Source of the DNA: Candidatus Limnocylindria bacterium
Lineage (GTDB): Bacteria; Chloroflexota; Limnocylindria; QHBO01
Direction of reading: 5' to 3'
Length of the DNA: 64,000 nt
Assembly: GCA_046717345.1 (NCBI GenBank)
Contig: JBKJVN010000153.1
Span: forward strand, 9,698-73,697
The notes beneath the pieces are model-generated. The model saw only the letters and a list, made by a program, of their open reading frames with translations, searched no databases and had not been told where the DNA came from. The position numbers and the translations under genes are program-made. Within the stretch, counting starts at the first letter, position 1; every line of letters starts with the position of its first letter. Positions 56,497 to 59,628 of this stretch are shown here, one piece after another.

Positions 56497-56856
56497 GTGA
56501 GCAAACGGCCGACGACCGAGGAAGCGGTGAGCGCTGTCCAGCGCGCGCTCCTGCAGTGCGTGGGGCCCGGCGCGGCGGAGCAGCTGGCCCTGGCCCAGGC
56601 CCGCCTCGCATGGCTCGAGGCCGTGGCCGCGGCCGGACTCACGCCCCACGGCATGTGGAGCCGCCTGGTCAGCGTGAACAACGGTGTGGCTACCGTCGTG
56701 ACCCCCGAGCCGATCCTGGCCGCCGAGCTCAAGCTGCGTGGCGATCGCCTGGCCCAGGCCGTCAACGAGCGCCAGCGCGGCCGCCCGGGCGCGCTGTACG
56801 AGCTGCGCGGCGTAGCCGTGGTGGTTCGGCCGGGGGCGACCGAAGGCCGGTCATGA
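56497..56856 (+). CDS. DUF721 / DciA-like protein
   Basis: Small protein immediately after recF with a DUF721-like sequence (…VNNGVATVVTPEPILAAELKLRGDRLAQAVN…). Confidence 0.65.
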   Translation: MSKRPTTEEAVSAVQRALLQCVGPGAAEQLALAQARLAWLEAVAAAGLTPHGMWSRLVSVNNGVATVVTPEPILAAELKLRGDRLAQAVNERQRGRPGALYELRGVAVVVRPGATEGRS

Positions 56857-59069
56857 GCCAGCGTCTGGCGACCCGGTTCGGTCTCGTCCCCGAGGCGGAG
56901 CGTGCGCCGGACGCGACCGATCTGGTCCGGGTCAACGAGCCGACGGTTGGTGCCCCGGTCCGGACCAAAGGCAGCCTCTACCTGCTGGCCCAGCTGACGC
57001 AGCCCGGGGCCGGCACGGTGCGGGCGGCGGGGCAGACGTTGGAGGCGATCGAGCACGACTACTACTACGACCTGTCCGCCGGTCCGCTCGACACCCTGGC
57101 CCGCGCCGTTGCCCAGGCCAACCGGCGCCTCTACCACGCCCGCGGACGGCTGGGCCTGACCCGGGGAGCGCGGATCAGCGTGGTCGGGGTCGCCATCCGG
57201 GCCGCGGAGCTCCACGTGGCCAAGATCGGCCCCGCCGGCGCGATCATCGTGCGCGGTGAGCGCATCTATGAGCTGCCACCGCCCCTGCCGGCGGGCGATG
57301 ACCTCGGCTCCGGCCGGCTGATCGCCGACTCGCTGGGGGAGGCGCTCGAGATCGAGCCGGTGACCTGGTCCGGCGAGCTGGCGGGCGGAGATCGCGTGGC
57401 GCTGGTCAGTCGCAACCTGGCGGAGGTGGTCGGGGCCGAGGACACGCGCAAGGCGTTGCTGGACCTGCGGCCAGCGGCCGCCGCGCAGCACCTGCACCGC
57501 CTGTTCCTGGATCGGGGCGGCTCGGGCTCCGACGGCCTGATCACGATCGAGCTGACGGCGATCGGCCTCACCGCGACCACCCATCGGCTCGAGCCGGTTC
57601 GACCGGCTGACCCGCTGGCGGGGCTTCCGGACCGCAGCCCTGTGCCGGGTGCCGATGCGGTGGGCGGAGCCATCCGGCGCGCCGACCAGGCCGTGGATCA
57701 CGCGCAGTCGCGGCTCGGAGGCTCGGTCGACCTGTTCATCGGACGTCTGATGGCCCTCATGCCCCGACGTCGGGTGGACTACCCCCGTCGGGTGGTGCGC
57801 ACCGAGGCCCTCGAGGCGCGGCGCCGGCAGCGTCTTGGGGCGCTCGGCATGGTGGCAGTCGCCGGCCTGGTGGCCGCCGGCGTCACCGTGGCCAGCTACC
57901 CGTCACTCGATCCCACTCAGGCCATCCCACGCCTGACCGTGGCCCGCGAGGCCGTCGCCGAGGCTCACGACCTGATCGCCGCAGTGGAGGACCGGATCGA
58001 CGGCCAGGACCTGGTGGAGCGCGACCCGGAGCAGGCCAAGGACCTCCTGGCCAACGCCGAGCGAGCCCTCGACCGGGCCGAGGGGGTAGGGGTGTCGGAA
58101 TCGGCGCTCGAACCACTCCGCGTCCGGCTGGACGGTCGGCTCGATGCGCTGTACGCCGTGTCCCGCATCCGAGAGCTGACGACCGTGGTGGACCTGGCGG
58201 CGGCGTTCACCGCCGTCTCGCCTGAACGGATGGTTTCCGCCTCCGATACGTCGCTGTGGATCACCGACACCGGTCGGGGTCGGGTGGTCCGCGTGGATCC
58301 GGCGACCGGCACCTCGGAGGTCGTCTACCGGGCCGGCCAGGAGCTGGACGGGGGAGTGGCCGGCGAGCCCTGGCTGCTGGCCACGGCGGCCACCGACGTG
58401 GTCATCGTCGACCGCGCGCGCCAGGCGTGGCGCGCGGACCTGGTCCAGCGCGTGCCGCGCCGCATGCCCCTGGCGGGCATCGAGGACCTGGCCCCGGGGA
58501 GCCGGCTGCTGACTGCGCTCCAGCATCGGCCGCCGCTCGAGATCTTCACCCTGTACGCGGTGGACGCCGCCAGTGGCGTGGTCTGGAAGTGGACCCCGCC
58601 GGCGGTGATCCCGGTCACCTTCCCCGATCCACCCGAGTCGTTCCTCACCGGGGCCGCGGACCTCAACCCGGCCGCGGCCCGCGACCTGCGCGCGGATGCC
58701 AACCTGTGGCTCCTCCAGCGCGCGACCGTGACCCGGGTCAACTTCGGCACGCCGGTCCCGCAGTCGGACTTCTCCCTCGATCCGCCGCCGGATGCCGCGG
58801 TCCGCGAGCCGTTGGACTACCAGTACCTGGCCGGCGCCACCATCGGCGATCGCGACGAGTTCTTCGTCTACGACGCCGCCAACGCGCGAATCATCGCCTT
58901 CGGACGCGCCGACGGGGCGTTCCTCGGGCAGTGGATGGCGCCCCGGCGGGGAGATGCCGCCGGCCTGCTGGACGAGGTCCTCGGCATGGAGGTCCTGTCC
59001 ACCTCCGACGGCCCGCCGGCGGCCTATCTGCTGACCCCGGATCGGGTCATCCGCGTCGTGCTGGAGTAG
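56853..59069 (+). CDS. Membrane protein: N-terminal PP2C-like (catalytic Asp residues substituted) cytoplasmic domain, TM helix, C-terminal beta-propeller-like domain
   Basis: PP2C-fold-like blocks with metal-binding Asp positions replaced (QPGAG for DGMGG, GPAG for GDSR). [22 protein letters not shown]. Repeats such as LWITDTGRGRVVRVD, FFVYDAANARIIAFG. ATGA overlap with the DUF721 gene. Confidence 0.5.
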   Translation: MSQRLATRFGLVPEAERAPDATDLVRVNEPTVGAPVRTKGSLYLLAQLTQPGAGTVRAAGQTLEAIEHDYYYDLSAGPLDTLARAVAQANRRLYHARGRLGLTRGARISVVGVAIRAAELHVAKIGPAGAIIVRGERIYELPPPLPAGDDLGSGRLIADSLGEALEIEPVTWSGELAGGDRVALVSRNLAEVVGAEDTRKALLDLRPAAAAQHLHRLFLDRGGSGSDGLITIELTAIGLTATTHRLEPVRPADPLAGLPDRSPVPGADAVGGAIRRADQAVDHAQSRLGGSVDLFIGRLMALMPRRRVDYPRRVVRTEALEARRRQRLGALGMVAVAGLVAAGVTVASYPSLDPTQAIPRLTVAREAVAEAHDLIAAVEDRIDGQDLVERDPEQAKDLLANAERALDRAEGVGVSESALEPLRVRLDGRLDALYAVSRIRELTTVVDLAAAFTAVSPERMVSASDTSLWITDTGRGRVVRVDPATGTSEVVYRAGQELDGGVAGEPWLLATAATDVVIVDRARQAWRADLVQRVPRRMPLAGIEDLAPGSRLLTALQHRPPLEIFTLYAVDAASGVVWKWTPPAVIPVTFPDPPESFLTGAADLNPAAARDLRADANLWLLQRATVTRVNFGTPVPQSDFSLDPPPDAAVREPLDYQYLAGATIGDRDEFFVYDAANARIIAFGRADGAFLGQWMAPRRGDAAGLLDEVLGMEVLSTSDGPPAAYLLTPDRVIRVVLE

Positions 59070-59088
59070 CAGCCACTAGAATCGGGCC

Positions 59089-59628
59089 GTGACCCAGCTC
59101 ATTGAGATGGTCGTCGAAAGCGTGCGGGTCCACGTCCTGTCGAGCCAGCACGTGGTGATTCTCAAGGAGACCGAACGGGACCGATACCTGCCCATCTGGA
59201 TCGGTCCGTCGGAGGCCAACGCCATCGCCATGCGCCTGCAGGGCATCAGCGCCGAGCGTCCGCTCACCCATGACCTGCTGGTCAGCGTGCTGGGGGCGGT
59301 TCACGGCTCCCTGAGCCGGGTCGTGGTCACCCACGTCAGCGATGGGACCTTCCACGCCCGCCTGTACCTGGAGACCGCCGAGGGCGGGGAGACGGAGATC
59401 GACTCGCGGACATCGGACGCGATCGCGGTCGCCATCCGGACCGGGTCGACCATCTACGTGGACGAACGGGTCCTCGACGAGGCCGGCGTCGAGCCGGAGA
59501 CGAACGGTGAGCTGGGCGAGGACCGCGAGAAGCTGGCGGTGTTCCGCGACTTCGTGAACTCGCTCGACGTCGACCTGGGGCCGTCCGAGGGCCGCCCACC
59601 GTCCGAGGGCCGCCCACCAATCGAGTAG
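59089..59628 (+). CDS. Bifunctional nuclease (BFN/DUF151) family protein
   Basis: VLKETERDRYLPIWIGPSEANAIA...SRPLTHDLL motif block typical of DUF151. Confidence 0.7.
   Translation: MTQLIEMVVESVRVHVLSSQHVVILKETERDRYLPIWIGPSEANAIAMRLQGISAERPLTHDLLVSVLGAVHGSLSRVVVTHVSDGTFHARLYLETAEGGETEIDSRTSDAIAVAIRTGSTIYVDERVLDEAGVEPETNGELGEDREKLAVFRDFVNSLDVDLGPSEGRPPSEGRPPIE

Follow-up and report, generated by a model that had tools for sequence, protein, structure and literature searches.

Within a 64,000-nucleotide stretch of contig JBKJVN010000153.1 from a Candidatus Limnocylindria bacterium (the whole stretch is hereafter called the window), an open reading frame (ORF) encoding 738 amino acids lies between a DciA-like gene and a gene for a BFN-domain protein. 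We propose, with a probability of roughly 0.6, that this gene encodes a receptor-like, single-pass membrane pseudophosphatase that has no catalytic role and works by binding or scaffolding. We have high confidence in the structural part of this description, namely an architecture like that of PstP in which a dead PP2C domain is combined with an NHL propeller. A first-pass annotation, made from the sequence and its ORFs without database searches, had described a PP2C-like membrane sensor at this position, and its individual claims are considered below alongside the results that bear on them.

The N-terminal domain of the protein is not recognised by current domain libraries. No PP2C match was obtained for the 738-aa protein in Pfam or NCBIfam at E ≤ 1, and a profile of the first 255 residues of the family matched no PDB sequence in an hmmsearch. 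Due to these blank results, structure prediction and a search via intermediate sequences were needed, and reliance on the libraries alone would have led to a wrong rejection of the fold. An AlphaFold2 model of the N-terminal part, built from 16 family members, has predicted local distance difference test (pLDDT) scores of ~80-90 over residues 1-236. The best 39 Foldseek matches to this model in the PDB are all PP2C phosphatases, with E values down to 9.5e-12 and target-normalised TM-scores of ~0.7, and they include PppA, S. agalactiae STP, tPphA, PstP, MspP and SpoIIE. The 255-residue family profile was also searched against 1.84 billion representative proteins, and this transitive search gave 2119 proteins at E ≤ 1e-3, with 463 at E ≤ 1e-10. 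Pfam PP2C, PP2C_2 or SpoIIE domains are found in 18 of the 42 matches that were sampled, and the family profile reaches such Pfam-positive PP2Cs at E values of 1e-17 to 1e-25. Finally, an hhalign comparison of the family with 14 active relatives gave a probability of 99.8 % (E 4.8e-29, 214 columns). The fold, transitive-profile and profile-profile lines of evidence agree in relating the domain to PP2C. This indicates, with the model as its structural basis, that residues 1-237 are a true PP2C-fold homologue lying outside the curated models.

Alignment to active relatives was then used to locate the catalytic motifs, and conservation was counted over the window protein and 77 species-level orthologues (78 sequences in total). 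In motif 1 (RxxNED), R17 and D23 align with the motif Arg and Asp, and both are kept in 78/78 sequences. The Asp of motif 2 (DGxGG) is lost, the aligned residues being Q47-L48-T-Q-P, with Q47 in 76/78. Similarly, motif 5 (GDSR) aligns with G126-P127-A128-G129 and motif 8 (SDG) with S186-R187-N188, and the Asp is lost from both; P127 is present in 76/78 and R187 in 77/78, while position 188 is occupied by N in 46 sequences and by H in 32. For motif 11 (DN), the ungapped alignment column corresponds to G225-S226, and an invariant D227-G228 stands directly before the last β-strand (residues 229-236 in the model). From its position before this strand, D227 (78/78) is probably the retained motif-11 Asp, displaced by a two-residue loop insertion. 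The stretch that forms the flap, between motifs 5 and 8, has ~14 residues fewer than its counterpart in active relatives. In more distant orders R17, D23 and D227 are mostly kept, and we see Q, T, S or E at position 47 and R, P, A, K or S at position 187.

The first-pass annotation had stated that every metal-coordinating Asp is replaced. This claim went too far, as R17 and D23 are retained throughout and D227 probably represents the motif-11 Asp, which had been overlooked. The reading of EP in place of ED was made in the wrong register: the Asp of NED aligns with the invariant D23, and E29-P30 is a separate subfamily motif, since active relatives such as P0236 and P0245 have an intact NED plus a downstream EP. 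A substitution of QPGAG for DGMGG had captured a genuine loss of Asp, but in a register shifted by three residues, with the Asp-Gly pair aligning instead with Q47-L48. The substitutions of GPAG for GDSR and of RN for DG were both upheld by alignment to active relatives. Conservation in orthologues had been put forward as a check on these losses, and the replacements in motifs 2, 5 and 8 proved to be fixed in the 78 orthologues; correct alignment did not restore the catalytic residues of these three motifs.

In characterised PPM phosphatases such as PP2Cα and PstP, the Asp of motif 2 is a bridging ligand shared by the two metals and that of motif 8 coordinates M1, and both residues are needed for the two-metal centre. 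The motif-5 Asp is the third-metal ligand of bacterial PPMs, and P127 stands in its place here. Because the motif-2 and motif-8 Asp residues are lost, we infer that the canonical binuclear metal centre cannot form and that the domain no longer dephosphorylates. As the losses are conserved across orthologues and orders, the sequence comparison indicates that the bridging Asp and the motif-8 Asp were lost long ago and that their loss is fixed. The drift of the replacement residues between orders fits a decayed site better than re-engineered chemistry, and the alignments point to descent of the domain from active bacterial PPM phosphatases. Some observations do weigh against this interpretation. 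The ungapped alignment puts G225, and not D227, in the motif-11 column. Two to three residues of the canonical site are still present, and a single metal ion might in principle be held by Q47, N/H188 and D227. In addition, all sequences come from uncultivated metagenome-assembled genomes (MAGs).

The PP2C domain is followed by an Arg-rich juxtamembrane linker, for which disorder is predicted. Within this linker is a conserved linear motif, recognisable in relatives at ~30 % overall identity, in which the columns L246, P248, V249, A256-D260, P263, P265, A267, D268 and G271 are invariant across 16 sequences. Judging from this pattern, the motif spanning residues 246-271 is a likely candidate for a partner-docking site. 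Residues 328-350 then form the sole segment with a mean Kyte-Doolittle hydropathy >1.6 over a 19-residue window. There are 10 Lys or Arg residues in the 24 positions before this helix and 2 after it, in keeping with the positive-inside rule. A model of residues 352-738 built from 19 diverse sequences (pLDDT 93.3, predicted template modelling score 0.89) shows a three-helix stalk, with helices at residues 3-28, 41-60 and 65-82 of the modelled part, followed by ~25 strands. In this model the outer domain can be superposed on NHL domains as a six-bladed propeller, and one blade (residues 452-504) matches designed NHL-like Pizza propellers with a phmmer E value of 2.6e-6. Pfam NHL (PF01436) gave no match on the window protein at E ≤ 1, and one distant relative has such a match at 2e-4. 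In the distant relatives P0129, P0138, P0141, P0146, P0149, P0199, P0252 and P0255, the propeller is followed by Pro/Ser/Thr-rich tails of a kind that is typical for O-mannosylated proteins of actinobacteria; the window protein has no such tail and stops directly after its last blade.

These results agree in large part with the architecture that had been proposed from the sequence. The first-pass annotation had assigned the N-terminal ~300 residues to the PP2C fold, which is correct with regard to the fold but too long, as the domain comprises ~237 residues. Its single transmembrane helix corresponds to the one hydrophobic segment with positive-inside flanks, and its extracytoplasmic, propeller-like repeats appear as a six-bladed propeller in a confident model. 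Structure prediction of the N-terminal and outer parts had been suggested as a check, and both the PP2C fold and the propeller were obtained in this way.

On the reading that we favour, the cytoplasmic domain would have no catalytic role and would serve to bind partners or as a scaffold. R17, D23 and D227, which have been kept, may hold the fold together, for instance through a pairing with R187, or may still bind a phosphorylated partner, with phosphoproteins possibly bound via R17. The conserved motif in the disordered linker would recruit another protein, and the propeller would bind a ligand in the envelope or outside the cell and so determine which state the cytoplasmic part adopts or where it is located. 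As for the process served, coordination of the envelope or of the cell cycle is the likeliest. There is precedent for PP2C-fold pseudophosphatases acting as binding modules in the C-terminal domain of RssB (PMC6546054) and in PHLPP2 (PMC12002173).

Table 1 Coordinates of the 738-aa gene, of the parts and key codons of its product, and of neighbouring genes in the window.
Feature	Position	Strand	Basis or remark
738-aa pseudophosphatase ORF	56853..59069	+	Between DciA-like gene and BFN-domain gene
Cytoplasmic PP2C-fold pseudophosphatase domain (predicted), residues 1-237	56853..57563	+	AlphaFold2, Foldseek, hhalign
R17 codon	56901-56903	+	Motif-1 Arg, retained
D23 codon	56919-56921	+	Motif-1 Asp, retained
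Q47 codon	56991-56993	+	Motif-2 Asp position, lost
P127 codon	57231-57233	+	Motif-5 Asp position, lost
R187-N188 codons	57411-57416	+	Motif-8 Asp-Gly position, lost
D227 codon	57531-57533	+	Putative motif-11 Asp
Arg-rich juxtamembrane linker, residues 238-327, predicted disordered	57564..57833	+	pLDDT ~31-47
Conserved linear motif L246-E-P-V...A256-G-L-P-D-x-S-P-V-P-x-A-D-A-x-G271	57588-57665	+	Inside linker
Single transmembrane helix, residues 328-350, N-in/C-out	57834..57902	+	Hydropathy, flanking charge
Extracytoplasmic three-helix stalk, residues 354-433	57912..58151	+	Model of outer domain
Extracytoplasmic six-bladed NHL-type β-propeller, residues 436-738, plus stop codon	58158..59069	+	Model, phmmer
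dnaA	~52.4-53.9 kb	+	Upstream of dnaN
dnaN (beta clamp)	54120..55289	+	First gene of tightly packed run; ORF; DNA_pol3_beta domains in orthologues
recF	55296..56486	+	Pfam SMC_N 1e-18
DciA/DUF721-like gene, 119 aa	56497..56856	+	Pfam DciA 17.9 bits and positional orthologues
ATGA stop/start overlap, DciA-like gene/738-aa gene	56853..56856	+	Sequence read directly
BFN/DUF151-domain gene, 179 aa	59089..59628	+	Last gene of run; Pfam BFN_dom 3.2e-40
Family-2 glycosyltransferase (GT2)	59636..60391	-	First gene of flanking glycosylation cluster; Pfam Glycos_transf_2 1.6e-31; convergent with BFN gene, 7-nt gap
Very large membrane GT-C/PMT-type O-mannosyltransferase-like gene	60433..63999	+	Pfam PMT 2e-18

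The gene belongs to a tightly packed run from dnaN to the BFN-domain gene (Table 1), in which the successive intergenic distances from dnaN through recF, the DciA-like gene and the 738-aa gene to the BFN-domain gene are 6, 10, -4 and 19 nt. Upstream in the window are secA, prfB, ftsX, a gene for a CtpB-like protease, smpB, jag and yidC, which together make up a typical origin-proximal region. A pattern scan of positions 53800-60600, which says nothing of other promoter types, found no sigma-70-like promoter or intrinsic terminator. This is compatible with a single dnaN-to-BFN transcript, which is probably how the run is expressed, but is no proof of it. E. coli-type DnaA boxes (TTATCCACA, with at most one mismatch) gave 2 matches in the window against 2.7 expected, neither of them near dnaA, and the origin could not be located with this E. 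coli-type consensus in the window, including the interval 53884-54119. Beyond the GT2 gene, which in our reading is similar to polyprenol-phosphate-mannose synthases, the divergent PMT-like gene has an open frame at 60016-63999, with a start at ~60433, and runs past the end of the window. Its product exceeds 1189 aa and has an internal soluble WD-like segment.

The start of the 738-aa ORF is supported by ~75 orthologues that start at the same MSxRLATR N-terminus, and most of the 77 recovered orthologues are 737-743 aa long. An alternative reading of 837 aa from a GTG at 56556 was rejected on the same grounds of shared start and length. A 924-aa ORF on the reverse strand (54927-57701), which runs antisense to recF and dciA and to the first part of the 738-aa gene, was dismissed as a high-GC artefact, with a junk-like translation rich in Arg, Gly and Pro and a GC content of 74 %.

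The 119-aa protein encoded upstream scores below the Pfam DciA cut-off (17.9 versus 24 bits), but PF05258 is matched by 13 of its 15 positional orthologues, with a best E value of 5.3e-10. It aligns end to end with Pfam-positive DciA proteins from two distant loci (L084 and L087) and shares with them an invariant Trp39, and the recF-dciA order is seen in every related locus whose flanks extend that far. The DUF721 profile in its orthologues, the conserved Trp and the post-recF position together indicate that the protein is DciA-like. The post-recF position is that of the dnaN-recF class of dciA genes (PMC5720831), and the DciA proteins of M. tuberculosis, P. aeruginosa and Caulobacter act in DnaB binding and helicase loading (PMC5720831, PMC5109545, PMC9825169). 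On the other side of the 738-aa gene, the BFN_dom match of the 179-aa protein (136.9 bits, E 3.2e-40) covers profile positions 1-110 of 112. Across the loci L004-L083, sequence identity is 75-98 % for the BFN-domain protein, 40-93 % for the DciA-like protein and 54-93 % for the pseudophosphatase, and the BFN-domain protein appears from these values to be under strong constraint. A mention of 'DUF151' in a paper on RagB turned out to refer to DUF1515 and is irrelevant to the BFN gene.

With respect to these neighbours, the first-pass annotation had named the 119-aa gene DciA-like, and the orthologue matches bear this out even though its own score is sub-threshold. The ATGA overlap, from which translational coupling had been proposed, can be read directly, the ATG of the 738-aa ORF occupying 56853-56855 and the TGA of the 119-aa gene 56854-56856. 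However, this 4-nt overlap is not conserved among orthologous loci: an ATGA or GTGA overlap with dciA is limited to the window and five close relatives, and 68 of 75 loci have gaps of 3-88 nt. The downstream gene had been called a BFN nuclease, and here the BFN domain is secure but 'nuclease' reflects only the name of the domain. The M. tuberculosis BFN homologue Cor has neither DNase nor RNase activity in vitro (PMC3870250), so the family name does not establish function.

Close homologues of the pseudophosphatase come from MAGs annotated as Candidatus Limnocylindria or Chloroflexota, and relatives turned up in at least 594 genomes when one genome per GTDB species was scanned. A sister clade at ~30 % identity is Candidatus Limnocylindrales, with 1988 proteins recovered at E ≤ 1e-10. 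The order dnaN-recF-dciA-pseudophosphatase-BFN, with GT2 on the opposite strand, is present in all 80 species loci with sufficient flank, and the same order is found in five relatives of 26-31 % identity (L084, L087, L089, L090 and the P0177 contig). In three of these five distant relatives, a rhomboid protease gene is inserted between the pseudophosphatase and BFN genes (L087 4888-5598, L090 11315-12058 and the P0177 contig). It overlaps the pseudophosphatase gene by 4 nt in L087, and in the two other contigs the genes are separated by 3 and 16 nt. This arrangement suggests that in Limnocylindrales-type relatives the rhomboid protease may have the single-pass protein as a substrate; no rhomboid gene is present in the 64-kb window. 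The GT2, TMEM260_N and PMT genes flank the module as conservedly as the dnaN-to-BFN order itself, with GT2 syntenic in all loci with sufficient flank and PMT and TMEM260_N-type genes at the PMT-like position in relatives. These genes make up a protein O-mannosylation cluster that is conserved beside the module across the class.

A more distant clade (P0199, P0252, P0255 and P0263) has the same architecture throughout, with stalk and propeller matching at E values of 1e-24 to 1e-31, and its loci lie beside a RodZ-like gene, beside a PAS-STAS gene or in an unrelated context. As proteins of the same architecture occur in these other contexts, the link to replication genes is a lineage-specific synteny and not a shown function, and the loci compared indicate that dciA linkage is a feature of the sampled Limnocylindria clades and not of the whole protein family. 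The PAS-STAS protein is encoded by the next gene after the P0252 homologue (L091 9791-10669). STAS proteins are classic substrates of RsbU/SpoIIE-type PP2Cs, and this neighbour is a hint that pseudophosphatases of the wider family may be connected with partner switching.

The conserved gene order invites explanations that go further than a binding module of general kind. The protein could be a replication or repair checkpoint adaptor, in which the propeller senses the envelope and the dead PP2C domain or the linker binds DciA, DnaN, RecF or the BFN-domain protein, gating helicase loading or repair. This is in line with the tight same-strand packing with dnaN-recF-dciA and BFN and the 4-nt dciA overlap in the window, with an order conserved across Limnocylindria down to 26-31 % identity, and with the lack of internal promoter or terminator matches in our scan. 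However, synteny is its sole tie to replication, and the same block also holds envelope genes (GT2, TMEM260_N and PMT), joined in some orders by a rhomboid gene. The distant clade of the same architecture lacks this order, its loci having a RodZ-like or a PAS-STAS gene next to them or lying in unrelated surroundings, and the dciA overlap is itself not conserved. The linker motif is unlike the clamp-binding QL[SD]LF consensus, and origin-proximal gene order is frequently kept for dosage reasons. The suggestion in the first-pass annotation of an adaptor linking envelope status to replication or repair is therefore not sustained, and we regard an adaptor of this kind as improbable. Harder still to credit is its fullest form, a class-wide checkpoint receptor whose propeller would report the state of the envelope or environment via the dead PP2C domain and linker to co-transcribed DciA, DnaN, RecF and BFN-domain proteins, gating helicase loading or fork repair without phosphotransfer.

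The envelope genes themselves point to a different role, in which the protein would organise, or report on, the assembly of the cell wall or of surface glycoproteins, for instance together with the adjacent O-mannosylation system, might be processed by the adjacent rhomboid protease in some orders, and would have its position among replication genes incidentally. We see this as a tentative alternative and on balance an unlikely one. A large extracytoplasmic NHL propeller like the sensor domain of PknD would suit such an envelope-biogenesis or morphogenesis factor, as would the conserved flanking GT2, TMEM260_N and PMT cluster, the RodZ-like neighbour in another clade, the Pro/Ser/Thr-rich C-terminal tails in distant relatives, as in O-mannosylated proteins, and the rhomboid gene directly downstream in L087 (4-nt overlap) and in two other contigs (gaps of 3 and 16 nt). 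Yet this too is guilt by association: the window protein lacks the tail, its 64-kb window lacks a rhomboid gene, and the glycosylation genes, being opposite-strand or divergent, are not in the same transcript. The least probable alternative in our assessment is that the domain is still an enzyme, a PP2C-derived hydrolase that would use a non-canonical site made of D23, D227, Q47 and N/H188 with one metal, or assisted by R187. The invariance of R17, D23 and D227 and their retention across orders could be explained in this way, and Joint Genome Institute annotation names several homologues PrpC. Against this, the bridging motif-2 Asp and the motif-8 Asp are absent, the replacement residues vary between orders, the flap is truncated and no PP2C model reaches threshold. 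A non-catalytic, receptor-like pseudophosphatase is the reading that we prefer.

PP2C pseudophosphatases, PstP-type membrane phosphatases, NHL sensor propellers and recF-linked dciA genes are each already known. No published description was found of a single-pass PP2C pseudophosphatase receptor encoded between dciA and BFN, and, to our knowledge, a membrane receptor built from a PP2C pseudoenzyme has not been described before. The family is missed by current domain libraries and is conserved in hundreds of species of an abundant, uncultivated class of soil and freshwater bacteria. It is a clean family of three recognisable parts, namely the degenerate PP2C domain, the linker motif and the stalk with its NHL propeller, and it has an unusually stable gene neighbourhood. 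If this neighbourhood reflects function, the family would point to a new way in which DciA-using bacteria link replication or repair of the chromosome to the cell surface. If the neighbourhood is unrelated to function, the protein would still be a case of an active PstP-type phosphatase turned into a non-catalytic receptor.

Among known systems, the protein can be compared with PstP (Rv0018c) of M. tuberculosis and related membrane-anchored PPMs, with which it shares an N-terminal cytoplasmic PP2C fold, a juxtamembrane linker, one transmembrane helix and an extracytoplasmic domain, as well as an origin-proximal location; the PstP structures 2cm1 and 1txo are among the best Foldseek fold matches. 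However, PstP retains the full set of metal ligands and works as a Mn-dependent phosphatase, whereas the window protein has lost motifs 2, 5 and 8 and has a shortened flap, and its outer domain is a predicted helical stalk with an NHL propeller. The genomic contexts differ also, as pstP neighbours fhaA/fhaB-rodA-pbpA-pknA/B, in place of which we see dnaN-recF-dciA and BFN in the window. For the neighbouring DciA-like gene, the mycobacterial Rv0004 and MSMEG_0004 of the dnaN-recF-dciA class likewise have a DUF721 gene right after recF near dnaA-dnaN and a conserved Trp in the DANL region (PMC5720831, PMC5109545). In mycobacteria gyrB-gyrA come next, whereas in Limnocylindria it is the putative pseudophosphatase receptor and then BFN. 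The use of a PP2C fold with a degenerate metal site as a protein-binding module is shared with the C-terminal domain of E. coli RssB, with TAB1 and with PHLPP2 (PMC6546054, PMC12002173). Those proteins are soluble, their PP2C folds being attached to receiver, kinase-binding or leucine-rich repeat modules, and none is a single-pass receptor with a propeller or is linked to dciA. The outer domain resembles the NHL propellers of Brat, Mei-P26 and TRIM71 and the designed Pizza proteins, with a repeat match to Pizza at the sequence level. PknD carries a propeller outside a single-pass Ser/Thr-signalling protein, and the propeller of the window protein is likewise predicted to stand outside an architecture of this type. 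The cytoplasmic domain of PknD is a kinase, in contrast to the apparently dead phosphatase described here, which also has a three-helix stalk before its propeller and is sub-threshold for Pfam NHL.

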